DNA from: an uncultured archaeon
Lineage (GTDB): Archaea > Thermoproteota > Bathyarchaeia > Bathyarchaeales > Bathycorpusculaceae
DNA: 64,000 bases
Direction: 5' to 3'
Assembly (NCBI GenBank): GCA_963782915.1
Contig: CAWALK010000022.1
Location: 192,001-256,000, forward strand
This document shows, one piece after another, positions 4,260-53,186 of the stretch. A program made the position numbers and the translations under genes. The number at the start of each line of letters is the position of its first letter. Within the stretch, counting starts at the first letter, position 1. The notes beneath the pieces were generated by a model, which ran no database searches, had not been told where the DNA came from, and saw only the letters and a program-made list of their open reading frames with translations.

Positions 4260-5071
4260 CTATTTTCTTCTTCGATACTCTCTTTGGATTTGCTCCACCA
4301 TAACCTTTCGAAGTAATCTTGGAATACTTTGGTAAGCATAGGATTATTCGACCATAATATGGGTGCTTGAGAAAAGTCGCCCTCTGTTGAAGTTGCCATC
4401 TGAGCTTCATTGCCATCATAAACAGCTAAGAATGAAACAGGTAACTCCTCGATGTATTTAATTTGACAAGCAGTTTGGCATAATTCTGGCAGAATTTTCG
4501 AAAAAGGCTTATTCATACTTGTCCTATCTAGAATAAACCGAATTTTGACGCCTCTATTTGTTGCTTTTATGATTTCTTCGCTCGCAGTTAAAAGTGTTTG
4601 ATTGAACTTCTTAAATGAAGTTATACAATCTATGCTGTCTTGAGCGCCTGCAATAGCTGTCATTCCCTTATTGAAGCTGGCTTTTCCCTTGGGAACCAAA
4701 ACAAATTCGTCACCAAAAGCATTTGTTTGTTCACCGCCTTTATTCTCGTATTCTTCCAGCAATTTTCCAGTCTTTTCTTTTAAATCCCTTATCTCTTCAT
4801 GTTTCTGCCCAATCAAAATCGATACTGCTTCATGTAATGATAGCGGTTTATACTTCGTGGGTGAGCATAAAATCGTTTCAATTAAACCCGCGCGCTTGAG
4901 TTCAAGCATCGCTCGATAAGTATCTGGGCGGCCTACACCTGAATTTTCGGCTACGGCTCTAATGGTTGAGGTTCCTTTTTCAATGAGGGCAAGATAGATT
5001 TTGGCTTGTGTCCTACTAATCCCTAAATCAACTAGAGTCTTTATGCTTTTTTCTCTGTCCCGCATACCCAT
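4250..5071 (-). CDS. TrmB family transcriptional regulator
   Basis: LGISRTQAKIYLAL..G.ST...VA..SGV.R..TY HTH; C-terminal WSNNP..FQDYFERLW. Confidence 0.9.
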   Translation of the reverse strand: MGMRDREKSIKTLVDLGISRTQAKIYLALIEKGTSTIRAVAENSGVGRPDTYRAMLELKRAGLIETILCSPTKYKPLSLHEAVSILIGQKHEEIRDLKEKTGKLLEEYENKGGEQTNAFGDEFVLVPKGKASFNKGMTAIAGAQDSIDCITSFKKFNQTLLTASEEIIKATNRGVKIRFILDRTSMNKPFSKILPELCQTACQIKYIEELPVSFLAVYDGNEAQMATSTEGDFSQAPILWSNNPMLTKVFQDYFERLWWSKSKESIEEENSYV

Positions 5072-5273
5072 CTTTTCTCTTGTTGATTTTCCAAAAAGTA
5101 CCCTAAGTTAGAATATAAATTGGATGAACTTCTAGTGCATAACCCTTCTACGTTTGTTGGAGCACCAACCAACACCTTCTTAATAATTTGTTAATCCATC
5201 GTCTCGGCTGGGCAGGTGCAAAGTTTTTACTAAACTAGTCCTTGCCCGAAAAAAATTGGAGAAAAGAAAAAAA

Positions 5274-7829
5274 TTGAAAACTCTAAACAACAAAATCATC
5301 GCAACTCTTATCGCAGTAATTCTAGTATCCTCAATGGCTATCGCAATCGGAAACCTGCCAAATGCTAGCGCACACAACCCTGCTTGGGAAATCCCAACAT
5401 GGTGCTACATGCAGGTTTCACCAAACCCTGTCGGTTTAGGACAACCAGTAGCATTCGTCATTTGGAACACTCGTGTTCCTGACGGAGCGTTAGTGACTAA
5501 TGACATCAGATGGAAAAACTACACTATCGTTCTAACAAAACCTGATAACACAACCGAAGTTCTCGGTGGATTCAACTCTGACCCCACTGGTTCAACATAC
5601 ACACAATACACACCAAACCAAATCGGTAACTGGACAGCTAAACTAATCTTCCCCGAACAAATCCTCACAACAACAGGTACACTCGCAAACGACGTATTCA
5701 AAGAAAGCACATACACAACCACCTTTACAGTACAGCAAGATGCAATTTCCACCGTAAGCTACCAATATCCATTACCCACAGAATATTGGACTCGTCCAAT
5801 CGAGGGTCAAAACAATGAATGGTTCACAATAGGCTCAAACTGGCTTCGAGGCTCTCAAGTCCAGATCGCACCAAGCGGAACTGGAACTTCTGGCAGAGTT
5901 CAACTAGACGGTATTGCACCAAACAGTGGACACATCATGTGGACAACACCCCTTGAAGACGGCGGAGTAGTCGGTGGAACCAACACCGCTATCGACGGAA
6001 ACGTCTTCTACTCTGGCACACAATACAACCCACGCTTCAATAACGCAATCATCATGGGCGGAAGAATCTACTATTCTGAACCAAAAGAAAACACTGGCAC
6101 AGGCGGCGACGTTGTATGCCGTGACTTACGAACCGGCGAAGAACTTTGGAGACGCAGCGACATTTCAATGTTCTCATTCGGAATGTACTACGCAATGGAA
6201 TACTACAACCAGCACGGAGTAATTCCACCAGGAGTACTATTCACAACATCAGGCAGCACAATAATCGCATACAACCCCCTCAACGGTCACGAGATGGGCT
6301 GGAACCTAACCAACGTTCCAACCGGCTCAATCGCTAACGAAGCAGTCGGTCCATCAGGCGAAATCCTAAGATACCAACTACAAAGCTACGGCACAGGCGC
6401 AAACCAAGTCTACAAAATACAACAATGGAACCTATCCAGAGCATACATCATAAACACTAACCCAACAAACCCAGCAACACTACAAGCAAACGCATCATCA
6501 TTCTATGACTTTAACCAAACAGTAACATACCAAGGCCAACCATTCAAAGTATCAGGCGCAAGCGCACAAGCAGTCATCTACAATGACTTAGTACTCTTCA
6601 GAAACGGCAGCCTACAAACACAAACAAGCGGCAACGCACAACCATACACTTACTTCGCAGTAGACATCAACGCATCACACGCAACACTTGGCAACGTCAT
6701 ATGGATGAAAAACTATGACCAACCAGCCGGCAACCTAACCCTGCTCTCAACAGCAGCAGGCGACGGCGTTTGGACAATGATGTACAAAGAAACATACCAA
6801 TGGATCGGATTCGACATGCACACCGGAGCAAAACTCTGGGACCACGCAGCAATGGACTTCTCTGAACTAGACTACAACCCATATGGCTACTACAGCTCAA
6901 CCACCGGCAACATGCTAACACACGCAATCTACCAGGGCAAACTATACTCAACAGGCTACAGCGGAATGCTCTTCTGCTACGACCTCTACACTGGAAAACT
7001 CCTCTGGAAATATGAAGCTCCAGCAAACATGGAAGTTTTCAAGTACTACACACTACACATCGGCGCAGTCGCAGACGGAAAAGTCTACCTCGGCTCACAC
7101 GAACACTCTGCAAGCACACCACTACTCAAAGGCAACCTAGTAAGATGCGTCAACGCAACAGACGGAACTGAAATTTGGACTCTACCCGGATGGGCAGCAG
7201 CATACAGTCCAGTAGTTGCAGACGGCTTCCTAGCATACGCCAACCTATACGACAACCAAGTTTACGTCGTCGGTAAAGGTCCAAGCGAAACCACAGTCGA
7301 AATCGAAGACAACGTTATCCAAAGCGGCAGCAGTGTAATGATCACAGGTACAGTAACAGACATCGCTTCAGGCACCACACAGACTGAACAAGCAGCACGT
7401 TTCCCCAACGGCGTCCCAGCAGTTTCAGATGCAAGCATGGGTCAATACATGGCATACGTCTACGAACAAAAACCGCTCCCAACTAACGTAACCGGTGTCC
7501 CAGTGACACTGAGCGTTGTTGACGCAAACGGCAACTACAGAACCATCGGACAAACTACCACTAACGACGGATTCTTCAGCTTAAGCTGGAAACCAGACGT
7601 TGAAGGTGACTTCCAAGTCTACGCTTCATTCGGCGGATCTGAATCATACTGGCCATCACATGCAATAACAGCATTCACCGTTGACTCTGCAGCAGCAACA
7701 CCAGCACCAACACAAACACCAGCAACACCAATATCTGAGCAATACTTCGTCCCAGCAATCGCAGGTCTACTCGTTGCAATCATCGTGGTCGGTCTATTGA
7801 CCATCATGATGCTCAAGAAGCACCCATAA
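5274..7829 (+). CDS. large membrane-anchored PQQ-like beta-propeller surface protein (paralog 1)
   Basis: TTG start after GGAG SD; signal peptide; YPLPTEYWTRPI; DLRTGEELW/YDLYTGKLLW blades; Thr/Pro linker, C-terminal TM + KKHP. Confidence 0.88.
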   Translation: MKTLNNKIIATLIAVILVSSMAIAIGNLPNASAHNPAWEIPTWCYMQVSPNPVGLGQPVAFVIWNTRVPDGALVTNDIRWKNYTIVLTKPDNTTEVLGGFNSDPTGSTYTQYTPNQIGNWTAKLIFPEQILTTTGTLANDVFKESTYTTTFTVQQDAISTVSYQYPLPTEYWTRPIEGQNNEWFTIGSNWLRGSQVQIAPSGTGTSGRVQLDGIAPNSGHIMWTTPLEDGGVVGGTNTAIDGNVFYSGTQYNPRFNNAIIMGGRIYYSEPKENTGTGGDVVCRDLRTGEELWRRSDISMFSFGMYYAMEYYNQHGVIPPGVLFTTSGSTIIAYNPLNGHEMGWNLTNVPTGSIANEAVGPSGEILRYQLQSYGTGANQVYKIQQWNLSRAYIINTNPTNPATLQANASSFYDFNQTVTYQGQPFKVSGASAQAVIYNDLVLFRNGSLQTQTSGNAQPYTYFAVDINASHATLGNVIWMKNYDQPAGNLTLLSTAAGDGVWTMMYKETYQWIGFDMHTGAKLWDHAAMDFSELDYNPYGYYSSTTGNMLTHAIYQGKLYSTGYSGMLFCYDLYTGKLLWKYEAPANMEVFKYYTLHIGAVADGKVYLGSHEHSASTPLLKGNLVRCVNATDGTEIWTLPGWAAAYSPVVADGFLAYANLYDNQVYVVGKGPSETTVEIEDNVIQSGSSVMITGTVTDIASGTTQTEQAARFPNGVPAVSDASMGQYMAYVYEQKPLPTNVTGVPVTLSVVDANGNYRTIGQTTTNDGFFSLSWKPDVEGDFQVYASFGGSESYWPSHAITAFTVDSAAATPAPTQTPATPISEQYFVPAIAGLLVAIIVVGLLTIMMLKKHP

Positions 7830-7884
7830 ATAACAAACATAAAAACAAAACTTTCCCACCCTTTTTTAGTTTAAATGGTACGTC

Positions 7885-8000
7885 AACTGGGGCTGAGAAG
7901 GCGACTGGTTACGATTTACGATGTTTGCAATCATCGTGGATCTAATTTGCAGTTGTGTTCTACTCTCCTTAATGGTCCAGTCGCCTCAGCAAACCCAGTT
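7885..8000 (+). ncRNA. BHB-flanked intron-like sRNA, copy 1 (predicted excised RNA 7898-7992, 95 nt)
   Basis: AACUGGG|GCUG|AGA|AGGCGACUGG pairs with CCAGUCGCCU|CAGC|AAA|CCCAGUU; 11-bp internal hairpin 7913-7942; CUCUCCUU anti-SD. Confidence 0.85.
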
Positions 8001-8065
8001 AACAGTGCCAAATTTTAGTTATGCCAAGCGACGATTTATTTAATTAGCTTTAGATTTGAAGCCGT

Positions 8066-9022
8066 TTAGAAGGTTGAGAGGAATTCTCTACGGAGTGGCC
8101 ATACAGGAAATAATCTGGAAACAGATATCTCCCAATTAGTTAGGTTATTTATTGCCAGAATCTGCTCCTTGAAACCCACAAATTGGTCAATATCTCTAAT
8201 CATCAAGCTCGCTATGCAATCAAATTTGCCGCTAGTTTTATGAATAAAGTTAATGTCAGGAGATTGAGAAATGGCTTCTACACTCCTGCTGAGGTTATCT
8301 TGAGAGAATGATAATTTGAAGAGAGCAAAAGCCCTGTACCCAATTTTTGAGGGGTTGATTTGAATTACTGGTTTTATGTCTTTATTGCGCTTGAGTTTTC
8401 CGTATCTTCTAATAACGGTATCTGTTGAGATGCCGAGTTCTTTACTGATATTGCAAAATGGGGTTCGCCCATTTGTTACCAATTTTTCAATTATGAATTT
8501 GTCAATATCATCAATTTCGATACGATTGATTTCTTTGTCTGTGCTTTGATCATTTTCTCCAGCAACTGCGTTAGCTAGTACAGATAGATTATCTGGGTTA
8601 TTACACATTCCAAGCCAAACTTGAGCTTCTACCTCTAGGACATAGGGTAATTGCTTGATGGATTGTTTAGTTTGCTCTATCTCCTGCATTGTTTTTACGG
8701 TGAATACCGCGCTAAGGTTTGGATTAACTCCTTCAGGATAAACTTCAATCACGTTGGCTGCATCGTTGAGAAGCTTGATAACATAATCTGCCTTGTGTAG
8801 TTGAGTGTAAATGTTGAAGGTTGCGACAAAATTGCTGTTGTAACAGGCGCAACTGTTTTGGATGGTTGCTCCAACGATTATGCCTTGTTTTTTCATTTGT
8901 TTGTATCTGTTAGCGATGACTTCTTTGGATACATTGCTTTGTTGGGCGATGGCTGTGAAGCTTTTCCGTCCATCCTTTAGCAGTTCTTTTAGGATTGTTG
9001 CGTTAATGCGGTCGATCTTCAA
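8066..9022 (-). CDS. Lrp/AsnC family regulator with two tandem HTH-RAM units
   Basis: IDRINATILKELLKDGRKSF and IDDIDKFIIEKLVTNGRTPF..ISKELGIS. Confidence 0.9.
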   Translation of the reverse strand: MKIDRINATILKELLKDGRKSFTAIAQQSNVSKEVIANRYKQMKKQGIIVGATIQNSCACYNSNFVATFNIYTQLHKADYVIKLLNDAANVIEVYPEGVNPNLSAVFTVKTMQEIEQTKQSIKQLPYVLEVEAQVWLGMCNNPDNLSVLANAVAGENDQSTDKEINRIEIDDIDKFIIEKLVTNGRTPFCNISKELGISTDTVIRRYGKLKRNKDIKPVIQINPSKIGYRAFALFKLSFSQDNLSRSVEAISQSPDINFIHKTSGKFDCIASLMIRDIDQFVGFKEQILAINNLTNWEISVSRLFPVWPLRREFLSTF

Positions 9023-9148
9023 TTATGGTTGCTTCCGATTGTTTGCTTTCTGTTAATGATTGGTTTGAATATCATAAATTGCTTTCGGAAATAATGAAAA
9101 TTCGCAACTGAATTCTTTAACTCTTTCCATTTTTATAGGTATGTTAGT

Positions 9149-9164
9149 CGAAAAAACTATATAA
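9149..9164 (+). promoter_or_regulatory. candidate BRE-TATA promoter upstream of BHB sRNA copy 2
   Basis: CGAAAAAA-CTATATAA about 45 nt before the element. Confidence 0.5.
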
Positions 9165-9209
9165 CAAATTAGTAGAAAAATATGGCAAAACGATAGATTA
9201 AGATAAAAC

Positions 9210-9312
9210 GGGCTGAATAGGCGCTGGTAAGTATCACGATATTGCCTGCCCGGTGTTTCGTGGAGAGCTTTTGCATTTAGCTCTTACTCCTTATCCAGAG
9301 CCTCAGCAAACC
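9210..9312 (+). ncRNA. BHB-flanked intron-like sRNA, copy 2, stand-alone (predicted excised RNA 9218-9309, 92 nt)
   Basis: GG|GCUG|AAU|AGGCGCUGG with CCAGAGCCU|CAGC|AAA|CC; CACGA/UCGUG hairpin; UUUUGCAU..CUUACUCCUUA segment. Confidence 0.75.
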
Positions 9313-9485
9313 ACAAAAACGTAGTTACTATTAACCGGCCGCTGATACCACATTATCAATCCTTAGCGGATGCACATGCCTCTGAGGATAGCTTGGTTTT
9401 GCTTAGGTTTTACGAATTACCCGCACAGAGATGCTTAGACAGCAATTAAAATATACCAAGTAAACATTGACTTGCTGGGTAAGCT

Positions 9486-9678
9486 ATGAAGCGAAAGAGC
9501 CTGCGAAAATTCAGCATAAAAAATAACCTAACTGCATTTTTAGGTTTGTCCCTTGTTTCGCTTGTTGTATTCGGGTTCATAGCACTCAACGGGCAAGATT
9601 CAAGAGGCGGTGGCTGCGTTTTCTGGTAGTCAACCCCAACTCGACGGTATCACCTTTATGATTATGAAAATGACTTAG
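9486..9678 (+). pseudogene. internally deleted membrane-bound SpoIIE/RsbU-type PP2C phosphatase remnant
   Basis: N-terminal TM (MKRKSLRKFSIKNNLTAFLGLSLVSLVVFGFIAL) joined out of frame to KIQEAVAAFSGSQPQLDGITFMIMKMT*, resembling the SpoIIE C-terminal PQ.DDIT motif; directly upstream of RsbW/RsbV. Confidence 0.65.
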
Positions 9679-9687
9679 AAGGCTTGA

Positions 9688-10125
9688 ATGATGAAAGACA
9701 GCGATGGATGGTTTGAACTTAAAATAGAAAGTGACCTAAAGAACCTAGAAATTGTAGCGGATTTCATAACTAAAACCATGCGTGAATCAGGCGCACAAAA
9801 TGAAAAAGACATATTCGATGTCCAATTAGCCGTAGACGAAGCCTTAACAAACATAATCGAACACGCTTACGCCGGCATTAAAGGCGGCAAAATCACAGTA
9901 CAATGCCGACTATCAGAATCAAAAAAAGAGTTCATAGTTAAACTTAAAGACTCAGGCAAACCCTTTGATCCCCAAACTGTCGCTTCTCCAGACACCGACG
10001 CCGAATTAGAGGAACGCAAAGTCGGCGGATTGGGAATTTACTTCATGAAACAGCTTATGCAAACCGTTAAATACGCCATCAACGACAAGGAAAACGAATT
10101 AACGATGGCTAAGATTCTTAGCTGA
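9688..10125 (+). CDS. RsbW/SpoIIAB-like Ser/Thr kinase (HATPase_c_2)
   Basis: LAVDEALTNIIEHAY, DSGKPFDP, GGLGIYFMKQLM. Confidence 0.92.
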   Translation: MMKDSDGWFELKIESDLKNLEIVADFITKTMRESGAQNEKDIFDVQLAVDEALTNIIEHAYAGIKGGKITVQCRLSESKKEFIVKLKDSGKPFDPQTVASPDTDAELEERKVGGLGIYFMKQLMQTVKYAINDKENELTMAKILS

Positions 10126-10135
10126 GGGTTTAACG

Positions 10136-10471
10136 ATGAGTGTTGAAGTTAAAACTGTGGGCGACGTAAAAATTATTTGTATCATGAAACGATTTGATGC
10201 TTATACTGCAAACCAGGTTGAGGCAGAATTAACAAGACTTATTGCGGAAGGTTCTCGCAAGATAGTGTGCGATTTCTCACAAACAGAGTACCTTGCCAGT
10301 GCTGGACTTCGCGTGCTCATAACTGCCACCAGAAGCCTCCAGAAAGTAGGCGGCAAAATTGTGCTCTGCTCAGTCAAGCCCTATGTGCTCGAAGTCTTCG
10401 AAATATCTGGCTTAAAGAAGATCTTCAAAATATTCGATTCCACCGACGCCGCCCTACAAGAACTAAAATAA
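10136..10471 (+). CDS. STAS domain anti-anti-sigma factor (RsbV/SpoIIAA-like)
   Basis: DFSQTEYLASAGLRVL, V.EVFEISGL. Confidence 0.92.
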   Translation: MSVEVKTVGDVKIICIMKRFDAYTANQVEAELTRLIAEGSRKIVCDFSQTEYLASAGLRVLITATRSLQKVGGKIVLCSVKPYVLEVFEISGLKKIFKIFDSTDAALQELK

Positions 10472-10483
10472 ACGGTGCTTAAG

Positions 10484-12208
10484 ATGAAATTAACCAGTTC
10501 CGATCTTCTCTTAAAATATCTTGAGAACGAAGGCGTCGAATACATATTCGGTGTCCCCGGACTCAGCTTAATCCCCCTTTTCGAGGCATGCAATCGAAAC
10601 CCAAAGATCAAGCCGATCCTCGCCAAACACGAGGAAGGAGCCGCATTCATGGCAGACGGCTATGCCCGAGTCAAGGGAACCTTAGGCGTATGCTTTGCTA
10701 CCTCAGGTCCAGGCGCAACTAACCTCATAACTGGAGTTGCAACCTCCTATCTCGATAACATCCCAGTTATGGTATTAACTGGTCAAGTTGCAACTTCGTT
10801 ATCAGGCGGCGGCGCTTTTCAGGATTCCACCAAAAACGGTGTCGACTCGGTAGCCATGTTTGACCCAATTACAAAGTACAGCACTATGATTCTTTCTAAG
10901 TATAGAGCTCCTGAAGAGATCCGTGAAGCCCTCAGAATGGCATTAACGGGCAAAAAAGGCCCCGTACATTTGAGTATGCCCAAAGACGTGATGGCTGAAG
11001 AGATAGAATCCGAACTACCAACATCTACCTCGTATAGGCCGCCTGCTGAGTACTTTGATCGCCGCATGGTGATTGAAGCCGCAGAGCAACTCGTAAACGC
11101 ACAAAACCCTGTAATCTTGGTGGGCAGCGGCGCAGTGGCATCTGGGGCTTGTGAAGAAATCCGTGATTTAGCTGAAACTCTGCGCATCCCAGTTGCGACT
11201 TCACCCAAAGCAAAAGGAGCCTTCCCAGAAGATCATCCACTATCCTTGGGTGTGCTTGGTTTCTGCGGTTCTCCTGTTGCGGAAAACTGTCTAACTTCCG
11301 GTCAAACCGATGTGCTATTAGTTATTGGGTCTAGCCTAAACCAGATGACAACTATGTCATGGGACCCACGCTTAGCGCCAACCAAATGTTTAATCCATAT
11401 AAACATTGACGCGACCGAAATCGGCAGAAACTACAAAGTCGATATTCCATTGGTTGGCGATGCCCGAACAATTATTAACGAAATCTCTTTCCGCATCATG
11501 AAATACATTGTGGATGAGCAAAGCCCAAAATGTGACGGAGCGGCAAGGGTTGCAGCTATACGACAGAAGGTCGGGATATGCGTATCACCCGAAAAGATGG
11601 AATCCAATAATATTCCAGTTTTGCCTCAACGCATGGTCAAGGAATTAGAACGTGCCTTGCCAGAAGACGCCATTCTATTCGTTGACACAGGAAATCCCAT
11701 GTGCTGGGCTATTCACCATATGCAAGTCCGAAGACCAGACTCGTTCATCTGTCCCTTCGGTCTTTTAACCATGGGTTACTCTACTGCCGCAGCTATAGGC
11801 GGAAAATTAGCTGCACCAAACCGTCCAGTTGTATCTCTAGTTGGGGATGGTTGCTTCTTGATGAATGGCATGGAAGTAGCTACAGCCGTCAGCTATGATA
11901 TACCAGTCGTCTGGATAGTGCAGAATAACGCAAAACTTGGTTTGGTCCATGAGTTCCAGAGGTTGAACTTTGGCGAAAAAACAGTTGTTACCAGATTCAA
12001 GCCGATTGACGCTGCCAAAGTGGCTGAAGGATTAGGTGCCAAAGGGTACCATATCGAGCGGCCAGGTGAACTTGAAGCATTATTGCCTAAAGTTATTGAA
12101 GAGAATAAGCCGGCTGTTATCGACTGCAGAATTGCTGATGAGGTACCGCCGCTTGCTCCATTTGTTCAGGGCCTCAAGAACTTCTCCAGCCGCCTAGAAA
12201 ATATGTAA
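10484..12208 (+). CDS. thiamine-pyrophosphate enzyme, acetolactate synthase large subunit-like
   Basis: IFGVPG, HEEGAAFMADGYAR, TSGPGATN, GDGCFLMNG..N motif. Confidence 0.92.
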   Translation: MKLTSSDLLLKYLENEGVEYIFGVPGLSLIPLFEACNRNPKIKPILAKHEEGAAFMADGYARVKGTLGVCFATSGPGATNLITGVATSYLDNIPVMVLTGQVATSLSGGGAFQDSTKNGVDSVAMFDPITKYSTMILSKYRAPEEIREALRMALTGKKGPVHLSMPKDVMAEEIESELPTSTSYRPPAEYFDRRMVIEAAEQLVNAQNPVILVGSGAVASGACEEIRDLAETLRIPVATSPKAKGAFPEDHPLSLGVLGFCGSPVAENCLTSGQTDVLLVIGSSLNQMTTMSWDPRLAPTKCLIHINIDATEIGRNYKVDIPLVGDARTIINEISFRIMKYIVDEQSPKCDGAARVAAIRQKVGICVSPEKMESNNIPVLPQRMVKELERALPEDAILFVDTGNPMCWAIHHMQVRRPDSFICPFGLLTMGYSTAAAIGGKLAAPNRPVVSLVGDGCFLMNGMEVATAVSYDIPVVWIVQNNAKLGLVHEFQRLNFGEKTVVTRFKPIDAAKVAEGLGAKGYHIERPGELEALLPKVIEENKPAVIDCRIADEVPPLAPFVQGLKNFSSRLENM

Positions 12209-12491
12209 GCCCTTCCGACTTCCTTGGGCTATTTTTTTTATTTCTCTATTTGATTGAAGGGATCAGAGAAACTTCTGGAGAGAATTGATGATCTCAAAAT
12301 AGTATCGTCACATTGAAATTAGAATAGTTGGCGAAGTTCTTAGGTATTGTTCTAATCATTTAGTTTTGTAAAGTAACCGCCAGTTTTTGGTAATGGATGT
12401 TTTGTAGTGCTGTGGCTGTTGGTAACAAACGCATTGTTTTAAATATCAACCGCTGAAAAGTAAGGAAGCACAAACAAGGAGATAAGAAAAA

Positions 12492-15103
12492 TTGAATAAA
12501 AAAATCTTTGCAATTTTGCTTTTTTTGGCTTTTAGCATTAGGAACATTTGCAGCTATACCAAATGAAGTAAACGTACAAGCAGCAACAGCAGCAACACAA
12601 AAGACCTATTCAATTACTGATGCAATCCCCGACAAAATCGGCCTTGGCGAAACAACACTTCTCAAAACCGGTATTACACAAGCACTAAACGCAGCCGAAG
12701 ATGGTTGGAGCGGCCTCACAATCACAGTCACAAAACCAGACGGCACAAACACAACATTGGGACCATTCAAGTCAGACTCGACAGGTTCAACCTTCACCCA
12801 ATACACACCAGACGCAGTAGGCACCTACACTATAACAAGCAACTTCCCACAACAAGAAATGCCAGTAAACACAGACGACGCAGAAAGAGGCATAACTATT
12901 CCTAAGGGAACCATCATGCTTGCAAGCAGTGCATCATGCACATTAGTCGTAACAAATGAGCCTTCACCAGTATATCCTGGTCATTCCCTTCCAACTGAAT
13001 ACTGGAGTCGCCCAATCGACCCACAGCTTAGAGAATGGTTCAGCATCTCAGGTAACTGGGTTCAACGACCAGACAATTCATTAGCACTCTTCAATGACGA
13101 TGCACCAGACACAGCACACGTACTATGGGCTCAAGATTTAACAACCGGCGGTATGTCAGGCGGTCTCATCAGGCCCTGGTCAAGTTCACTGCAGGAATGA
13201 ACTCAGGCGACGCATACGAAGGCAAATTCTCCAACTCAGTCATACTCAACGGAAAACTCTATCTACAACACTGGACCCGCACCAGGCTTTTACGGTTCAC
13301 TTGGCATCAATGTAACGTCAAAGCAGTTGACCTACACACAGGCGAGGAACTCTGGGTTAAAAAACGACACACTTCCTATCCTTTGGTCAAGAATTCTACT
13401 GGAACAGCTACAACGTAGATGGTGTATACAGTTATCTTTGACAACATCACCACTTATGATCCACCATTCTTCATCCCAAAAACCACTTGGACTGCATACG
13501 ACCCCTTTGAATGGCTTCTATGGTGCTTCACTTTCGAGAATGTTCCCTCAGGAACAGCAAATCTATGGCCCAAGCGGCGAAATCCTGATCTATCAAATTG
13601 ACTACGTAAACAACCGACTGATGCTTTGGAACTCAACCCTCTGCGGATCTACAAAATGCAGCGCCAGATTCACCTGATCTACGGTAGTTGGGCAAGCAAC
13701 GTCATGATGAAAACATTCGATGCATCAAATCCAAAATGCTACTCTTGGAACGTCTCTATCCCAGCGGGCTTGAAACAGAAGCACATACATTCGGGGCATC
13801 AATCGCGAAGATCTACGATGACAGAATATGTCTGCATTATTCTTCAACCAAACAATGGTAAGAGTATGGGCAATAAACACTGAAGACTTAACAAAAACAT
13901 CCACATCAACTCTCAACTGCTATTCGATCAAACCTGGGCTGCACCAACCGAATGGCTTGCATGGCTCAAACACTCTACATTACACAGGCGCAACAAATTA
14001 TGTATCACAGACAGTACATACGGCGACGGTGTCATAGCAGTATGGGACAAAGAATTAAGAACCCACTATGGCTTTAGCATCACAACTGGTAAATACCTCT
14101 GGGCAACTGGCTCTGAAATCTATTCCGATGCTTACGGTTGGGGTAATGCAGAACACACTTGGTACTTTGCTTATGGCAAATTGTACTCAGTGGGTGTCGG
14201 CGGTATCCTCTATGCTTATGACCTTGCAAACAGGATGACACAGCATGGACATACAATCTAACTGACGCCCAACTGGAGAACCCGTCACAGGCAACAACTG
14301 GTGGGGCTGGATTGACCTAATTGCTGATGGCAAAATCTACATCGGCACACTTGAACACTCAGCTGAGAACCCACTACCAAGAGGCGCACCCTACATCGCA
14401 GTTAACGCAACCGACGGCAGCTGAAATCTTGCCGTGTCAACGGTATGTTCCGTGAAACCAGATGGGGCGGTAACGGCATCATCGCTGATAGCATCATCGC
14501 AACCATGGACACATACGACCAACGCGTATATGCAATCGGCAAAGGCCCAACACAACTAACAATTGACGTACCAGGTATCGGCGTAGCATCAGGACAAAGC
14601 ATCATGATACAAGGCACAGTTAACCGACACATCACCAGGCACCTCAGACTTACGCATTAACCTCAAGATTCCCCAACGGTGTCCCTGCAGTATCTGACGA
14701 CAGCCAAAGCCAATGGATGCTCTATGTATACAAACAATTTGAACGCCCAACAAACACTACTGGCGTTGAAGTAATCTTAACTGCTTTGGACCCTAATGGT
14801 AACTATATCACCCTCGGCTCGACTACAACGGATGCAAGCGGCACCTTCGGATACAACTGGGCAACACCTGACATTCCAGGCAAGTACACGATCACTGCCA
14901 TATTCGCTGGCTCCTCGGCATACTATTCTTCAAATGCACAAACATACGCTATCATAGAGTCTGCACCTGAACCCACCGCTGAACCAACAAAAACACCAAC
15001 GGCAATCTCAGAAACCTACTTTGTACCTGCAATTGGGGGTATATTCATTGCAATAGTAGTAGGTTTCGTGTTGATGCTATTAGTACTCAGGAAACGACCA
15101 TAA
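12492..15103 (+). CDS. PQQ-like beta-propeller surface protein (paralog 2), many frameshifts (probable sequencing errors)
   Basis: TTG after AAGGAG; LPTEYWSRPI; YDQRVYAIGKGP; RFPNGVPAVSD; C-terminal YFVPAIGG TM + RKRP. Confidence 0.85.
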
Positions 15104-15163
15104 GGTGAAAACGAAATGAAAAACACCCTTTCCCTTCCTTTTTTTAGTTTCAATTTATGTTTC

Positions 15164-15281
15164 AGGCTGGGGCTGAGTGGGCTTCTGGACTACTGTTTTA
15201 CGCGGTGTTTGCGATCATCGTGTTTGCATTTTTCTTCTCTCCTTAAGAATAAATGTCTAGGCGCCTCAGTAAACCCAGTTT
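15164..15281 (+). ncRNA. BHB-flanked intron-like sRNA, copy 3 (predicted excised RNA 15178-15272, 95 nt)
   Basis: AGGCUGGG|GCUG|AGU|GGGCUUCUGGAC with GUCUAGGCGCCU|CAGU|AAA|CCCAGUUU; multiple G-U pairs. Confidence 0.85.
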
Positions 15282-15317
15282 AAACCTTTTTTCGTTTTCT
15301 TTTTCTTGAAATAATTA

Positions 15318-15392
15318 GGCGCCGGGGTTAAGGACTCGAACCCCTGTGGGCATGAAGCCTCTGGCTATCTTGCCATTTCTGGCTCTTGCCCT
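15318..15392 (-). pseudogene. degenerate 3' fragment of tRNA-Ser(CGA) including part of the intron (att-site remnant)
   Basis: Matches 19121-19195; 25 nt exact (15368-15392 = 19171-19195); T-arm mutated. Confidence 0.85.
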
Positions 15393-15672
15393 TACGATAG
15401 GTTTTTTTTAATGTGGGTTTTTTGCATGCGCTACTTTGGTACTTTATGGCTTAATTTTAGCAACGAGAATTGTAAAAGGCAAAACTGATTTAGCAAAGAA
15501 TGGTTTGTGCCTTATCTTTCGTTTATGAATAAAAATAAGAAAAAATGCTATATTCGTAATCGTTATTCATAATTATACTTAATTTTATGGCAAGTTTTAA
15601 GCATATTTGCAAAACCATAAATACGCAAAGGAAACAAAAAAAGAAGCCATAGACATAGGAGATAAGAAAAAA

Positions 15673-18393
15673 TTGCATGTATTAAAAAAAATTGCAACAA
15701 TAATGTCTGTATTGTTAATTGCTTGTATTGTAACTTCTATATTCGCAGCACCATTGGCAACTGGCCAGGTAACCTTGCCGCCTGGCACACATATTGCGAC
15801 TTATGCAAACATTAACGTGGCACCCAACCCAATCGGCGTTGGACAAACAGTCAACGTAAACTTCTACCTTGCGTCACCATTAATCGACAGTAGCAGGCCA
15901 ACAAACATGACAGTTAAAGTCACTGACCCAAGTGGCAACGTCCAAATGAAAGGTCCATACACCGGCGATACAACTGGCGGAACCTTCTTCAACTTCGTTC
16001 CAGACAAAGTCGGCAACTGGACATTCCAACTGTTCTACGGCGGACAACTCACAGTAGGCAGCTCGGGATTCGGAGGAGGACCACCAACTAACGCCAAACT
16101 CATACAAGACCCCAGCGAAAGTAAAGTCTACACGCTTTTAGTACAAGAAGAACCCATAGTACAAACCGGCTACCCACTGACTCCGCTACCAACAAGCTAC
16201 TGGGAGACACCAGTGTCGGCTCAGAACGTCCAGAACTGGTACAAGATTATGGGCCCCTGGCTAGGACTTGGAACCATCACCTTTGCCTCAACGGGCGCAT
16301 ACAACGTCAGCAGCCTATGTAACCCCTACACGCCATCAGTAACATCCGGACACATCATCTGGACGAAAACATGGGGCGCAGGCGGTGTCGTAGGCGGCAG
16401 CGCAGGCGGAACCGAAGATTCAGGCAGCTACTGGTCAACAAGGCAGTACTGGCCACAGTATGCACCAGTCATCATGAACGGCAAAATGTACTCGACATAC
16501 TACCCAGAAACCACAGGCTACTCAAACGGCATAGTATGCACAGACCTCTACACTGGCGAAACGCTTTGGAAAATCAACACAACCGCTGTCCTTCGATGCG
16601 GAATGACGACACAGTGGAAGACTCCAAACATGTACGGCGTAGTCGGCCCATATATTTGGACTACAGGTAACTTACCCGCTTCAGAAACCGGCGGAAAACT
16701 TATCCAAAGCTCAGGCACTGAAATGGGCATGTTTGGTCCAGCGCAAAAAACAGCATACAACCTGTATTCTGCTGAAACAGGACAATACGTCCTAAGCATC
16801 GTTAACGCTTCGGCCATGACACTTAAAGAAGATTCTCAGGGAGATATAATTGGCTACTATCTTAACAGTACTGTTGGAACAATGAGAATATACGGTAATG
16901 CCCCACAAATGGGCACACAACCTCTGGTTCAAACAGTAAACATCACTGCAGGCAAACCAGTCTTATGCTGCTTCAACTTCACACAGGCACTCGGCAACTC
17001 TTGGGGATGGTCTCCATCACAGAACACCGCAATTGACTTCGGTCTAGGTGTAATGTGGGCGAAGCCAGTACCAACCGAAATCAACGGAAAACCAATCTTC
17101 CCAGCACTCGCTATGGATGCAATCAACCCACTAGGCGGCGACGCAGTAGTACTAACAGGCGGATACACCATCATGCAAGGAGGCGGAGACGAAACATGCG
17201 GTTGGCTAGTAGTAGCTTCCATGGATGACACAACCGGCGATGTCTTGATGTGCAAGAACTTCACATACGCAGACGGCTACCAATCATTACTGCCTTACAC
17301 GAGGACAACCAGCTGCAACGTCGATGGAAACAGAGTGATAGCCAACGTGGTTAACAACAAAATCGACGCCTTCAACATACGCACCGGAGCTAAAGCATGG
17401 TCATCAACCCTCGACACTCCATCAGGCTCTACAAACACCTACGACTCGTTCGGCTTCAAAGCTGCACCAGTAAACGGCAAACTGCTCCTCTTCGGTTTAG
17501 GCGGAGACATCTGGGCATACAACGGTAAAACAGGCGCAGAAGAGTGGTACACCAACACAACCGGCTTAATCGGCGACTCAGGCATCGAAACACCATACGG
17601 TACATGGCCACTATGGGTATTTAGTTCACAAGCCTATACACCAGAAGTCGCATACCTCGCAATCGGTCACGAATACAACCCGCCACTATTCCACGGAGGA
17701 CAACTATTAGCAGTCAACATGACTGACGGCACACTAGTCTGGAGTGAACTAGGCGCCTACATCCGATCAGTAGCAATCGCAAACGGCGTCCTACTATCCC
17801 TAAACGCTTATGACAACCAGATTTACGCATTCAGCAAAGGGCCAACCAAGATAACCATTGACGCACCGAGCATTGGAGTAACAACTGCCACGCCGATACG
17901 CATCACAGGAACCATAACCGACGTTTCAGCAGGCGTTACACAATCAGAAGTAGCTAAGAACTTCCCCAACGGCGTACCCTGCGTATCTGATGCAAGCCAA
18001 AGTAAATTCATGGAACACGTCTACCAAGACCAGCCAGCACCAACCGACACCACAGGCGTTCCAATCACCTTGAGCGTCGTTGACCAAAACGGCAACTACC
18101 GCACAATCGGCGCTACTATGAGTACTCCAACCGGTTCATTTGGTATCACTTGGACACCGGATATTCAAGGGGACTATCAAATCTACGCAAGCTTTGAAGG
18201 CTCCAATTCGTACTGGCCAACATCAGCCGGAACATCCTTCTACGCAGGCGAAGCCCCAACAGCAGCCCCAACCCAAGTAGCAGCACAGACAGTTGACAAC
18301 ACTATGCTCATCGTTGCTATCGGCACTGCAATCATCATTGCTATCGCGATTGTAGGAGCAGTTCTACTGCTCGCTATAAGAAAACGCCCATAA
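15673..18393 (+). CDS. PQQ-like beta-propeller surface protein (paralog 3)
   Basis: TTG after AGGAG; PLPTSYWETPV; DLYTGETLW; YDNQIYAFSKGP; NFPNGVPCVSD; TM + RKRP. Confidence 0.88.
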   Translation: MHVLKKIATIMSVLLIACIVTSIFAAPLATGQVTLPPGTHIATYANINVAPNPIGVGQTVNVNFYLASPLIDSSRPTNMTVKVTDPSGNVQMKGPYTGDTTGGTFFNFVPDKVGNWTFQLFYGGQLTVGSSGFGGGPPTNAKLIQDPSESKVYTLLVQEEPIVQTGYPLTPLPTSYWETPVSAQNVQNWYKIMGPWLGLGTITFASTGAYNVSSLCNPYTPSVTSGHIIWTKTWGAGGVVGGSAGGTEDSGSYWSTRQYWPQYAPVIMNGKMYSTYYPETTGYSNGIVCTDLYTGETLWKINTTAVLRCGMTTQWKTPNMYGVVGPYIWTTGNLPASETGGKLIQSSGTEMGMFGPAQKTAYNLYSAETGQYVLSIVNASAMTLKEDSQGDIIGYYLNSTVGTMRIYGNAPQMGTQPLVQTVNITAGKPVLCCFNFTQALGNSWGWSPSQNTAIDFGLGVMWAKPVPTEINGKPIFPALAMDAINPLGGDAVVLTGGYTIMQGGGDETCGWLVVASMDDTTGDVLMCKNFTYADGYQSLLPYTRTTSCNVDGNRVIANVVNNKIDAFNIRTGAKAWSSTLDTPSGSTNTYDSFGFKAAPVNGKLLLFGLGGDIWAYNGKTGAEEWYTNTTGLIGDSGIETPYGTWPLWVFSSQAYTPEVAYLAIGHEYNPPLFHGGQLLAVNMTDGTLVWSELGAYIRSVAIANGVLLSLNAYDNQIYAFSKGPTKITIDAPSIGVTTATPIRITGTITDVSAGVTQSEVAKNFPNGVPCVSDASQSKFMEHVYQDQPAPTDTTGVPITLSVVDQNGNYRTIGATMSTPTGSFGITWTPDIQGDYQIYASFEGSNSYWPTSAGTSFYAGEAPTAAPTQVAAQTVDNTMLIVAIGTAIIIAIAIVGAVLLLAIRKRP

Positions 18394-19119: not shown

Positions 19120-19244
19120 TGGCGCCGGGGAAGGGACTCGAACCCCTGCGAGCACGAAGCCCACCAGCTGTCTTGCCATTTCTGGCTCTTGCCCTCGTTT
19201 GTTTGATCTCGAGGCTGGCGCGATAACCACTCCGCCACCCCGGC
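19120..19244 (-). tRNA. tRNA-Ser(CGA) with 38-nt intron at 37/38 (19170-19207), CCA encoded
   Basis: GCCGGGG/CCCCGGC acceptor, CCAGC/GCTGG anticodon stem, CT-CGA-G loop, long variable arm, GTTCGAGTCC. Confidence 0.93.
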
Positions 19245-30006: not shown

Positions 30007-32778
30007 ATGGACTTTATCAATAAAAAAACAGTATCTATTCTATTCGCAGCTCTATTAGCAATTTCAATGATAACTACAATGGTACAAATTCAAAGCAGCA
30101 CTGCACATACACCTCCCTATCAGATTACAACTTACGCCAAAGTTACAATTCAACCCGATATTATCGGCGTAGGCCAAGCAGCATTAGGCTACGCTTTCCT
30201 TGGAAATGCACCCCTCCCCGGTTCAACAATGAACAATGCCTACAGATTCCACGACTACACCGTTACAATTACGGACCCTAATGGCGAAGTCAAAACACTT
30301 CACTGGGACACCGTTGATGACACAACCGGATGCCAGATGTTCAAATATACCCCTTCAGTAGTAGGCCAATACAACGTTACCTTCACCTTCGGCGGAATGA
30401 CACTAACATCAGCTGACACAGGCACAGCCGCGAGCATTGGCGACGTTTACCTGCCAAGCACCTCAACATGCACCTTCTACGCACAAGAAGAATCACTATC
30501 GAACTTCCCTGACAGTTATCCACTGCCAACTGAATACTGGACTAGACCAATCTATGGCGAAAACCCAGGTTGGTACACAATCTCATCCAACTGGCTAGGA
30601 ACTGGCTCACCTGTCATTTCAGCAACAGGCTCAGGCCTAATTACTGGCACAGGAACACAATCAGGAATTCAGAGATATCCCGGTGACGCCGTCGGTTCTA
30701 TGACTAGCCACGTCATGTGGACTAAACCAGTACAATCAGGCGGTGTTGTCGGTGGCGACACATACGAAATAAAAGGCGATACCTACTTTGAAGGCTCAGC
30801 ATACATCAATAGATTCCAGAACCCAATCATCGTAGCTGGGATGCTAGTTTACAAAGAACCCCTTTCCTTCTCAAGTGCAGGCGGCGGAGACACAGTCTGC
30901 GTCGATTTACGCACTAGTGAAGAGTTATGGCGAAGCCCAACAATGCCTGCAATCTCATTTGCCTACGTTCCTGATTTTCAGAACCCCAACCAACACGGTG
31001 TCTTCCCACCACTACTAGTCACATCCAACTGGGCACAAGTCTACGACGCTTACACAGGCTATCCAATGTTCAATGTTACTGGCTACAGCGCAGTCGGTGG
31101 TACCATAGTAATGGGCTCAAACGGTGAACATATAAAATACACATTCTTCAACAACGGCACCGCATCAAAACCAGACTGGTACTTATGCAAATGGAACGCA
31201 ACACTGATGTGGGGCGGAATCGGATACCACCCTAACGAAATTGGCAGCACACCCGCAATTCAAACCGAAACAACCACAACATATGCATTGGCTAACACAA
31301 CAACTTACGTCAACAACATAAAAACAATAACAAGCCAAAATGTCTCCACCTCAACAACTGCAGTTATCGCAAACCAGGGACGCCGCTACAACTGGTTAGA
31401 CTCTACAACACAGAACGAATCAATATCCTGGAAGAACCAAGCACAATACAACAACCTGCAATTTACAGTGGTAGCAGCCTACTACAACAACATCATGATT
31501 TGCAGAAACGGCTCATATCCAACTCTAACAGGTGTAACACAGAACGTGTCTGGTACCGTATCATTGACTAGTGCAAACTGGACATACTTCGCTATCGACC
31601 TTAACGAAAGCCACGGTACATTCGGCCAAATTCTTTGGACAAGCCCAACATTCACCTCTCTGCAAGACAAGACGATCACATTTGCTGGATCAGACCCAAC
31701 AGTCAACGTTTTCGTAGAAGGAAACAAAGAAACAACCACTTTCACAGGTTACAGTATGACAACAGGCCAAAAGCTCTGGACAAGTGTTGGCGAAACAACT
31801 TTAGACTACTTCGGTAATCCCGCATTCCCATACGCAAGTGCCCAAGAAGCATACGGCAAACTCTACAGCCTCAACTACGGTGGTGTACTATTCTGCTATG
31901 ACCTAACGAACGGTGACTTGCTTTGGACCTACGGAAACGGAGGCGCAGGTAACAGCACCTCAAGTGGTCTACAAACACACGGCTACTATCCAGGATTCAT
32001 AATGGCTGTAGGCAACGACGCAGTATACATAGGCGCAACACAGCACACCATCACTACACCAATTCCAAAAGGCAACTATATGCGAGCAGTTAACGCAACA
32101 ACAGGCGAAGAAATCTGGACAATCTCAGACTACACTGGCAACTTCTTCACCCTCTCCTTCGCTATGGCTGATGGTTACTGCACGTACTTCAATGGCTACG
32201 ACAACCTAATCTACTCAGTAGGCAAAGGACCAACATCATTAACCGTCACAGCACCAGACCTATCTGCAGCATCAGGCCAACCAGTGGTAATACGTGGAAC
32301 AGTCTATGATGTCTCAGCAGGTACAACACAAGATGAGCTAGTGGCACGCTTCGCAAACGGCGTTCCAGTCAGCTCTGACGCAAGCATGCCTGAATGGATG
32401 GGTTACCTCTACCAAGACAAACCACTACCGACTAACTTCACAGGTGTTGAAGTAGCACTCAACGTGCTCGACTCTAATGGCAACTACCGCACAATCGGCG
32501 CAACAACAACCGACGCTACAGGCGCATACAGCTACGTATGGCAACCAGACATTTCAGGTGAATACACAGTCGTTGCAACATTCGCAGGTACAGCTGGCTA
32601 CTGGCCATCAACAGCTACAACAGCATTCAACGTCATGAACGCAGAAACAACAGTAACACCAACCCAGACACCAGTATCTATGTCTGATGCCTACTTTGTA
32701 CCAGCAGTCATTGGCATTATCTTTGCAATCGTTATAGTCGGGGTCGCAATAGTATTCGTCCTAAAGAAACACCCATAA
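30007..32778 (+). CDS. PQQ-like beta-propeller surface protein (paralog 4)
   Basis: Signal peptide; YPLPTEYWTRPI; DLRTSEELW; YDNLIYSVGKGP; YFVPAVIG TM + KKHP. Confidence 0.88.
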   Translation: MDFINKKTVSILFAALLAISMITTMVQIQSSTAHTPPYQITTYAKVTIQPDIIGVGQAALGYAFLGNAPLPGSTMNNAYRFHDYTVTITDPNGEVKTLHWDTVDDTTGCQMFKYTPSVVGQYNVTFTFGGMTLTSADTGTAASIGDVYLPSTSTCTFYAQEESLSNFPDSYPLPTEYWTRPIYGENPGWYTISSNWLGTGSPVISATGSGLITGTGTQSGIQRYPGDAVGSMTSHVMWTKPVQSGGVVGGDTYEIKGDTYFEGSAYINRFQNPIIVAGMLVYKEPLSFSSAGGGDTVCVDLRTSEELWRSPTMPAISFAYVPDFQNPNQHGVFPPLLVTSNWAQVYDAYTGYPMFNVTGYSAVGGTIVMGSNGEHIKYTFFNNGTASKPDWYLCKWNATLMWGGIGYHPNEIGSTPAIQTETTTTYALANTTTYVNNIKTITSQNVSTSTTAVIANQGRRYNWLDSTTQNESISWKNQAQYNNLQFTVVAAYYNNIMICRNGSYPTLTGVTQNVSGTVSLTSANWTYFAIDLNESHGTFGQILWTSPTFTSLQDKTITFAGSDPTVNVFVEGNKETTTFTGYSMTTGQKLWTSVGETTLDYFGNPAFPYASAQEAYGKLYSLNYGGVLFCYDLTNGDLLWTYGNGGAGNSTSSGLQTHGYYPGFIMAVGNDAVYIGATQHTITTPIPKGNYMRAVNATTGEEIWTISDYTGNFFTLSFAMADGYCTYFNGYDNLIYSVGKGPTSLTVTAPDLSAASGQPVVIRGTVYDVSAGTTQDELVARFANGVPVSSDASMPEWMGYLYQDKPLPTNFTGVEVALNVLDSNGNYRTIGATTTDATGAYSYVWQPDISGEYTVVATFAGTAGYWPSTATTAFNVMNAETTVTPTQTPVSMSDAYFVPAVIGIIFAIVIVGVAIVFVLKKHP

Positions 32779-32836: not shown

Positions 32837-32949
32837 CTGGGGCTGAGCAGGCTTCTGGACTGCTGTTTACGCGGTGTTTGCAATCATCGTGTTTTGCATT
32901 TTTCTTACCTCCTTAAGGAATAAATGTCTAGACGCCTCAGCAAACCCAG
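32837..32949 (+). ncRNA. BHB-flanked intron-like sRNA, copy 4 (predicted excised RNA 32848-32943, 96 nt)
   Basis: CUGGG|GCUG|AGC|AGGCUUCUGGAC with GUCUAGACGCCU|CAGC|AAA|CCCAG; ACCUCCUUA anti-SD. Confidence 0.85.
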
Positions 32950-40158: not shown

Positions 40159-40520
40159 AGAATTAAGAGACCGTCAAACCGCAAGTACCAGAAATTGGTA
40201 AACAAACTTATTCTTTCTTTTTCTTTCATTTTAGAATGGTTATTGGAATTTCCTACTTTTTGTCCTCGCTGGCCGATGTCGATGAGGAAGAGGGTTGCTC
40301 AAAATCAGCTATGAAATTTATTTGCTTGTGTGTGAGATTCCTATCCATCGTTGTTTACGCTAAAGTAAAAATTGAGATCGAGTGACCTCCTTTGCAGATA
40401 CCTCCCCTCCCTTATAGTAGTAGATTAAAATCTTCGCTGTTCTGGTTGGGGTTTATTGCACAATCAACTTGCAACGCAAACCCGACGCTGAAGCTGGAAA
40501 GTAATCGCTATCATACTTCT

Positions 40521-40562
40521 TTGGTTGTTGTTGACACTAAGAGGGGTCCATAGCAACAACCA
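40521..40562 (+). repeat. intergenic hairpin repeat copy c
   Basis: TTGGTTGTTGTTGACACTAAGAGGGGTCCATAGCAACAACCA. Confidence 0.8.
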
Positions 40563-40872
40563 GTATAGAAAAAATAAACAAACCGCAAATTTGAATTAAT
40601 GACATAAAGCACCGATTTTTTTAGTTGTCAGACTCTCTAAGCATGGCAAGCAATGCTACCATATCTCTTTGGCAGTTGTTGACATAAGTTGTTGATAGTA
40701 TCAACCCGCTTAGAGAAACATAGACAAAGCGAAATTTGAACCAATGACACAAACACCATTTTTTTACTTGTCAATAACGGCAGAAAACGCTAAATGGTGT
40801 TCCAAAGCGGATGTATTAGTAATAGAAATGAAAGCGGTTGACTGCCTTGAAGCAATCAAAAAATCTAACAAG

Positions 40873-53185: not shown

Positions 53186-53186
53186 A

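Follow-up and report, generated by a model that had tools for sequence, protein, structure and literature searches.

Element D and its locus

The 64,000-nucleotide (nt) stretch analysed here (the window) comprises positions 192,001-256,000 of the forward strand of contig CAWALK010000022.1 (C22) of an uncultured archaeon of the Bathyarchaeia, whose genome is coded G000; coordinates are those of the window unless a contig is named. At 9210-9312 (plus strand) it holds element D, a structured element of about 100 nt whose RNA is closed by a motif of the bulge-helix-bulge (BHB) kind and which is recognised with 61.2 bits (E 3.6e-12) by a covariance model trained on 115 copies, all from other genomes. 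D belongs to a real RNA family, so far undescribed, whose BHB is canonical and which is tightly linked to one family of surface-protein genes. Three further copies in the window (A, B and C) follow such genes. An earlier note on this DNA, made from the letters alone, had described D as a stand-alone copy, and this is borne out: no surface-protein gene stands before it, the list of open reading frames (ORFs) holds no same-strand ORF upstream, and a box resembling a B recognition element and TATA box (BRE/TATA-like) lies in front.

The candidate promoter of D, read from the sequence only, spans 9144-9180 (+). It comprises the box cgaaaaaactatataa (also written cgaaaaaaCTATATAA; 9149-9164, that is 46-61 nt upstream of D) and the direct repeats TTAGTCGAAAAA (9144-9155) and TTAGTAGAAAAA (9169-9180), which flank the TATA box and may be a regulator-binding site. 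At the distance usual in archaea between TATA box and start, transcription of D is expected to begin near 9187. A look-up of public RNA runs for 7000-9700 listed none. No T5 run follows D within 100 nt, the nearest lying near 9536. Divergent from D is a double Lrp/AsnC-type regulator gene (8066-9022, minus strand, 318 aa), the ORF of which contains two AsnC-type helix-turn-helix stretches and an AsnC ligand domain; the back-to-back arrangement described earlier is real. The TATA-like CCTATAAAAATGG (9126-9138, minus strand), about 20 nt from the TATA box of D, is the likely promoter of the Lrp gene. That Lrp controls D is a candidate idea, a guess from their adjacency.

The fold of D

D starts with GGGCTGA (9210-9216) and ends with GCCTCAGCAAACC (9300-9312). 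Its outer helix (h) consists of G9210-C9312 and G9211-C9311 only, as the earlier note had it, because C9209 and A9313 do not pair; the GG (9210-9211) and its partner CC (9311-9312) are invariant in the family, an invariance that the search pattern imposes. The central helix (H) has 4 bp, GCUG (9212-9215) with CAGC (9304-9307), in a register taken from the covariation of the adjoining pair. The 5' bulge is AAU (9216-9218), since A9219 (nt 10 of the element) pairs with U9303 and leaves nt 7-9 free, and the 3' bulge is AAA (9308-9310), as placed by the alignment and pair counts. In the minimum free energy (MFE) structure the inner helix (h') joins 9219-9227 to 9295-9303, with one G/A mismatch at 9223/9299. 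It encloses two hairpins. Hairpin 1 (9235-9262) is formed by CACGA...UCGUG with an inner GCC/GGU, and with its UGCCUGCCC it recurs in two copies of the same genome (C24:139986-140094 and C12:250511-250646). Hairpin 2 (9263-9285) is formed by GAGAGCU/AGCUCUU and carries a 9-nt loop, UUUGCAUUU (9270-9278), in which CAU (9274-9276) is the complement of a start codon. Downstream of it lies CUCCU (9287-9291), complementary to the Shine-Dalgarno (SD) sequence GGAG; in the MFE structure 9287-9289 stay single-stranded and 9290-9293 form pairs with 9228-9231. The hairpins and the anti-SD segment previously attributed to D are thus both present, with the CUCC exposed.

The plus strand of D folds with -36.2 kcal/mol (z -2.76; 2 of 200 shuffled sequences are as stable) and the minus strand more weakly, with -33.2 kcal/mol (z -1.90). 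G-U pairs in the helices of the family identify the plus strand as the RNA strand.

The earlier note also called D a divergent copy with a spacer of its own, antisense to a start-region-like string. Compared with the three neighbouring copies D is indeed divergent, but within the family it is not: its score exceeds those of B and C, it ranks 10th among 19 matches of the model in its own genome (9th-10th, as an identical copy on contig C5 ties with it), and 19 of 127 copies likewise have GG:CC as their whole outer helix. The antisense stretch does exist, 9269-9293 being the reverse complement of the quoted string, but it is merely the 3' strand of hairpin 2, and in relatives that hairpin commonly takes this form, GAGAGCU/AGCUCUU with the UUUGCAUUU loop. 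D is an ordinary family member in an unusual place.

A family of RNAs in the Bathyarchaeia

Copy A (7888-7998, plus strand, 65.0 bits) begins 58 nt past the stop codon of an 857-aa surface-protein gene (5256-7829), copy B (15168-15278, plus strand, 55.9 bits) follows fragmented surface-protein frames (12508-15103), and copy C (32838-32949, plus strand, 57.0 bits) lies 59 nt past the stop codon of a 923-aa surface-protein gene (30007-32778). All three genes are of the PQQ-propeller/Big_3_5 type with a C-terminal anchor. The 19 own-genome matches, D among them, were obtained at E<=0.01. A pattern built from the invariant ends of the element, which fixes most letters of the core, finds 13 copies in the genome, three of them on contig C5, which repeats part of C22. 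The same search finds at least 117 stretches in public genome contigs; among the 80 titles listed, 74 name Bathyarchaeota, Bathyarchaeia or Bathyarchaeum, two an "uncultured archaeon", and four are short contigs binned elsewhere. A search of metagenome contigs with a variant pattern added 122 matches, so that public Bathyarchaeia contigs and metagenomes together hold more than 230; no match was found in the IMG/VR viral contigs.

With the covariance model at E<=1e-4, a 121-genome sample of the phylum yields matches in G000 and in two of the three other genomes of the same GTDB family, and in none of the 117 others. Among 30 other genomes of a GTDB-family sample three match at E<=1e-12, a cut-off so strict that D itself is nearly excluded. 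As far as searched, the distribution is patchy inside one family-level clade. No Rfam 15 family matches any copy, either at the gathering threshold over the window, where the sole match with a gathering score is a tRNA at 19123-19244, or at E<=1 over five copy-bearing loci. We found no description of the family in the literature on BHB motifs or non-coding RNAs of the Bathyarchaeia.

Some copies are arranged in pairs. Tandem elements lie about 330 nt apart in the same genome (G000:C24:139986-140532, minus strand) and are directly adjacent in two relatives (G077:C3:48589-48827 and G061:C8:5017-5290). Contig C5 is about 99% identical to C22:197-207 kb (window about 5000-15300), carrying A, D, B and the Lrp gene; the distance from D to B is 9862 nt on C5 and 5960 nt on C22. 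Either the segment has been duplicated or the bin contains a second strain. A weak match of the model (C20:383525-383648, minus strand, E 5e-5) lies 1.6 kb past a 16S gene.

A strict bulge-helix-bulge

As described in PMC3239211, a strict BHB consists of two 3-nt bulges on opposite strands with a 4-bp helix between them. RNAalifold and pair counts recover the outer, central and inner helices of the family, with 95.2% of helix cells paired. There are 78 double-sided changes, compared with 20.5 +/- 3.6 in shuffled alignments, none of 500 of which reaches 78; the inner helix has 8-9 bp, and five of its nine pairs change on both sides. Two registers were possible, one with a 5-bp central helix, the other with a 4-bp helix and nt 10 paired to position 4', and a metagenome scan for variants at 4' decided between them. 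Where 4' is U (n=115), nt 10 is A in 93 copies, G in 22 and any other base in none; where 4' is C (n=111), it is A in 12, G in 96 and another base in three (Fisher p = 2e-27, which overstates the independence of the observations because the sequences are related). Since nt 10 covaries with 4', the arrangement is bulge 3, helix 4, bulge 3. The motif thus reads: a GG(N):(N)CC helix, GCUG:CAGY over 4 bp, a 5' bulge A-R-N, a 3' bulge AAA and an inner helix starting from R:Y. The strict 3-4-3 form is found in the family as in D, and the BHB claimed for D by the earlier note is now fixed by covariation.

On both strands, read 5' to 3', the order is helix, central helix, bulge, helix, with the bulge 3' of the central helix. 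This is the orientation of a tRNA intron at position 37/38, for which the placement of the bulges follows from tRNA numbering, and the intron-bearing tRNA at 19123-19244 of the window agrees. A third outer pair forms in 85% of 127 copies; on average the outer helix is extended by 2.0 further pairs, a number that drops to 1.19 +/- 0.09 when partners are swapped. Its length does not differ between orphan and gene-linked copies (2.1 vs 1.7, p 0.89).

The genome encodes two ORFs with the tRNA_int_endo (EndA) domain, of 189 and 184 aa, as well as RtcB; the EndA-type ORFs are located at G000:C3:14491-14736 and C3:35259-35510, and RtcB at C24:160224-161537. Cleavage would fall in the bulges. If the cuts in D obey the rule for tRNA introns at 37/38, after the second bulge nucleotide, a piece of 92 nt, 9218-9309, would be excised, and in a circle 9309 would be joined to 9218; in other copies the predicted junction joins ...CCUCAGCAA to N9-R10-GGC.... 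The presence of two EndA-type subunits suggests an alpha-beta endonuclease, and such enzymes are described as accepting relaxed motifs (PMC3239211). For D, cleavage would need an enzyme that tolerates relaxed (HBh'-like) motifs.

Placement behind surface-protein genes

Linkage was counted at 73 foreign loci, each with at least 1500 nt of upstream DNA. At 58 of them a frame of at least 400 codons ends 47-97 nt (median 65) before the element, and of 66 upstream frames 58 encode homologues of the window's 857-aa protein; the linked genes encode PQQ-propeller/Ig surface proteins of about 850-950 aa. The remaining 15 loci have no long upstream frame. A conserved C-rich T-run lies between the stop codon and the element in 102 of 121 copies. 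The same T-run is found 3' of own-genome paralogues that have no element, hence it is part of the gene, of which it probably forms the terminator. Of 121 copies, 55 have a run of T5 or more in the 60 nt that follow the element. In its own genome the element has about 30 surface-protein paralogue loci to accompany.

Complementarity to the start regions of surface proteins

Surface-protein genes share a stereotyped start region, AAGGAGAAAAGAAAA-AUG-(AAA/CAA). GGAG followed by a purine-only spacer and the start codon occurs in six of the 21 surface genes and in one of the 1121 other predicted starts of the genome, which served as background. The interior of the element, CAU-N~10-CUCC, is complementary to this purine-rich SD-AUG region. 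CUCC is present in 101 of 128 elements, with the nearest CAU 5-13 nt upstream in 73 of these (peak at 10), and the spacing from GGAG to the start codon is 8-12 nt in 32 of 38 start regions. The CUCC is predicted to be unpaired with a mean probability of 0.79 (0.51 for the interior as a whole), a value that exceeds 0.5 in 89 of the 101 elements.

By local alignment all 10 own-genome elements examined fit the surface starts better than the 1121 others; the score of one of the copies on contig C24 (C24a) is 13.3 vs 6.9 (p 1e-10), and that of D 8.2 vs 6.1 (p 6.6e-5). The start regions that score best with D are those of surface paralogues beginning AUGCAAA. Its top match is such a surface paralogue, with 11 contiguous complementary nucleotides over AAAUGCAAAAG, a match to the loop of hairpin 2 and its flanks, plus CUCCU:AGGAG. 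An exposed complement of SD and start codon is thus found at the level of the family; in D it is weaker and bipartite, made of the CUCCU and the 11-nt loop match. Predicted duplex energies are better for surface starts than for the background with B (p 0.003) and C (p 0.018), and marginally so with the second copy on contig C24 (C24b, p 0.057).

The complementarity is family-wide, not locus-specific. The earlier note had suggested that each copy has a different target; this is not supported, as the interior matches the start region of the whole gene family and the energies of cognate and non-cognate pairs of element and start do not differ (-16.33 vs -16.31 kcal/mol, n=48). The search it had called for, of the genome for start regions resembling the string of D (28 nt), returned at up to five mismatches the D locus itself and nothing else.

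Two variations on the start-like sequence were observed. In 42 of 116 foreign copies (loci L022-L137) GGAGAAGAGAU(A/G) lies 11-13 nt before GGGCTGA; it resembles a start region, and no ORF follows it. Before the BHB is cut, this flank could keep the interior covered; its pairing with the interior is not locus-specific (p about 0.12). In a subfamily (L021, L027, L038, L065, L082, L084, L108 and L112) a start mimic, AAAAUGAAAAA, and the anti-start UUUUUCAUUUU lie in one hairpin.

Proposed role and alternative explanations

We propose that the RNA is excised by EndA, probably circularised, and masks the start regions of surface proteins in trans, a proposal to which we give an even chance. D would be a functional, separately promoted member of this Bathyarchaeia RNA family. 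It would be transcribed on the plus strand from its own TATA box, while for most other copies transcription would run on through the T-run terminator of the preceding surface-protein gene. The ends of the RNA would fold into the strict 3-4-3 BHB, and the tRNA-splicing endonuclease, with its two EndA-type subunits and probably of the broad-specificity alpha-beta form, would cut both bulges; RtcB would probably seal the ends into a circle of about 90 nt. The interior would then present CAU (in D within a hairpin loop) and, about 10 nt downstream, CUCC, which would pair with the start codon and the Shine-Dalgarno sequence common to about 30 PQQ-propeller/Ig paralogues. With the start regions masked, translation would be lowered. 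Gene-linked copies would tie the transcription of one paralogue to repression of the family (feedback or cross-repression), and D would provide the same activity independently of any surface gene. The action in trans suggested by the earlier note fits D, since a copy that stands alone has no upstream gene on which to act in cis; 15 of 73 foreign copies, too, have no long upstream frame.

A number of observations weigh against this proposal. The T-run lies between gene and element, so that co-transcription needs read-through, and an element is found within 260 nt at only about eight of the 30 own-genome surface-protein loci. The outer helix is very short, with no further pair in 19 of 127 copies and none in D, and a strict alpha4/alpha2-type endonuclease would refuse so short a helix. 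As most core positions are fixed by the search patterns, the invariance of the core is not independent evidence. In the alignment test D is the weakest of the 10 copies, and some nucleotides of its CUCCUUA are base-paired in the MFE structure of D. Duplex energies are no better for surface starts with A (p 0.76) and the copy on contig C20 (p 0.71), and with D they are worse (-12.9 vs -15.5 kcal/mol). The equality of cognate and non-cognate pairs and the result of the string search belong here too: as there is no locus-specific co-variation, the complementarity could reflect shared composition plus two short motifs. In the subfamily mentioned above, UUUUUCAUUUU pairs with the internal AAAAUGAAAAA, and the anti-start segment is therefore not exposed.

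The first alternative is an element that acts in cis as part of the 3' untranslated region (UTR): the read-through mRNA would loop onto its own start region and so control translation or stability, cutting of the BHB would end the loop, and D would be a relic whose gene has been lost. The fixed position (median 65 nt behind the gene, 58 of 73 loci) and the complementarity to the start region of exactly the linked gene family are what such an element predicts, the T-runs downstream of 55 of 121 copies fit a long 3'-UTR isoform, and 9120-9139, in front of D, weakly resembles the post-gene T-run motif (judged by eye). A relic, however, is hard to reconcile with the full structure and motifs kept by D and by the 15 foreign loci (of 73) that have no long frame upstream, or with a TATA-like box of D's own; tandem copies exist, and cognate pairs are no better than non-cognate ones. 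We regard the cis explanation as doubtful.

In the second alternative the element is a structural module, or one for processing or protein binding, without any antisense role. Read-through RNA would be marked by the BHB for trimming or discard by the endonuclease, or a protein would bind the core, and the interior would merely resemble an anti-start sequence. The core GGGCUGA / GCCYCAGYAAACC is indeed conserved beyond the needs of a BHB, the energy test reaches no significance with A, C20 or D, one subfamily masks the segment in an internal helix, and no target is locus-specific. Such a module leaves unexplained, on the other hand, why the CAU-to-CUCC spacing mirrors that from SD to start, why all 10 own-genome copies align better to surface starts than to the 1121 others, why the CUCC is preferentially unpaired, and why the purine-only start is nearly unique to the linked family (6/21 vs 1/1121). 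We think this explanation, too, unlikely.

A selfish intron-like or MITE-like (miniature inverted-repeat transposable element) repeat that moves from locus to locus without serving the cell would account for the many copies per genome (19 matches), the tandem and orphan copies and the patchy occurrence (2/3 genomes in the phylum sample, 3/30 at E<=1e-12 in the family sample), but it is very improbable: the element lies almost exclusively behind one gene family, and at a fixed distance from it; interior motifs are conserved and helices covary across hundreds of copies; G-U pairs speak of selection on RNA rather than DNA; the IMG/VR viral contigs gave no match; and no insertion polymorphism or target duplication was seen, although no systematic search for these was made. 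A trans-acting excised RNA explains the combination of matching spacing and orphan copies better than any of the three alternatives.

A more far-reaching form of our proposal can be put forward as a speculation with a small chance of being right: circular antisense RNAs made by the tRNA-splicing machinery, each encoded directly downstream of a surface-protein paralogue, would cross-repress the start regions of about 30 paralogues, thereby choosing or dosing the coat of the cell through translation, and D would be a gene-free master copy, its switch tied to a metabolic signal by a promoter that a repeated TTAGTMGAAAAA box brackets and that stands back-to-back with the double Lrp regulator.

Four further readings of the element were rejected. 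An origin from rRNA does not agree with the flanks of the 16S and 23S genes, which are unlike the element. A tRNA-like gene is not supported, as ARAGORN gives no match in the window and the flanks have no D- or T-arms (by eye). Readings of the core as a K-turn, C/D, H/ACA or hammerhead RNA were dropped because, as judged by eye, it lacks the required GA pairs or boxes. As for a small ORF on the minus strand, SD and ATG occur there by construction, and the ORFs of 126 copies, 1-59 aa long, share no peptide.

Comparison with known systems

In archaea, the BHBs of pre-tRNA introns and of the processing stems of pre-rRNA are cut by EndA and joined by RtcB, and the excised piece is often circular. 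The element resembles them in its 3-nt bulge, 4-bp helix and 3-nt bulge, in strand orientation and in that the enzymes are encoded in the genome. Unlike them, it lies outside tRNA and rRNA genes, its "exons" have no known function, its outer helix is mostly 3 bp long, and what is conserved, and apparently functional, is the excised piece.

The intron of tRNA-Trp in Euryarchaeota contains a box C/D small RNA (sRNA), a functional RNA which is freed by BHB cleavage and can be circular. Similarly, the RNA of the element would be freed by the tRNA-splicing endonuclease. No C/D boxes were found in the element, and weak C/D matches elsewhere in the loci are unrelated to it; unlike the tRNA-Trp intron it is not hosted by a tRNA, and its proposed targets are mRNA starts instead of methylation sites in rRNA or tRNA. 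Antisense sRNAs that mask a Shine-Dalgarno sequence or start codon, and sRNAs derived from 3' UTRs, have bacterial examples and are found among the sRNAs of Methanosarcina. The element shares with these a short exposed pyrimidine-rich seed against SD and AUG and, in gene-linked copies, the 3'-UTR position. It differs in its predicted production, via a BHB and not by RNase E-type processing or a simple terminator, and in its targets, which would be paralogues of its own host gene family.

Among mRNAs, the BHB introns covered by PMC7714728 are those of the cbf5 pre-mRNA of Crenarchaeota and a 46-nt intron in the 5' UTR of Haloferax HVO_1309, for which a circular excised product was demonstrated; in the account given there, splicing-endonuclease substrates outside tRNA and rRNA amount to a handful of single cases, cbf5 and HVO_1309 (PMC7714728). 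As in these two, the BHB of the element lies outside tRNA and rRNA, in an untranslated part of the transcript of a protein gene. In contrast to these single loci, as that account presents them, the element occurs as a family, with about 16 distinct copies in each genome, lies downstream of the stop codon and of a terminator-like T-run and not in the 5' UTR or coding region, and has conserved interior motifs and orphan copies too. With its hundreds of members, a BHB established by covariation and its conserved interior, the family would represent the first large class of endonuclease substrates outside tRNA and rRNA. If the proposal above is right, the excised and probably circular piece would gain a plausible regulatory job. 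The family links an RNA to the expansion of surface proteins in an uncultured, globally abundant group of archaea, and suggests a possible way in which such cells control which surface proteins get made.

Other features of the window

Among 40 other genomes of the GTDB family, proteins resembling the Lrp neighbour of D were found in two, with 34-38% identity, and metagenome contigs gave no relatives of it. Between D and the genes for a HATPase_c_2 protein, a STAS protein and a thiamine pyrophosphate (TPP) enzyme lies a 47-codon ORF with a hydrophobic stretch (9486-9629, plus strand), about 35 nt upstream of which stands a TATA-like TTAAAATATA. The HATPase_c_2 protein has no match in three relatives.

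The tRNA at 19123-19244 (minus strand) has a 42-nt insert in the anticodon loop, a long variable arm and the loop CUCGAGA. A partial copy of its intron and 3' half (about 15305-15400, minus strand; a 29-nt repeat, 97% identical) lies 3.8 kb away, and the two bracket a surface-protein paralogue (15607-18393); the pair looks like an old duplication or an integration scar. The 16S and 23S genes of this genome are unlinked (G000:C20:380444-381932 and C12:367007-370037). Two other repeat families were observed in the window: a CA-rich repeat of 76-106 nt that ends in TTGGTTGTTGTTGA (1854-2420, 40459-40571 and 53066-53193), and a promoter-like TGAGCCTATAAATAGAGGGGG box (2172, 19614 and 52936; inverted at 23907 and 57875).

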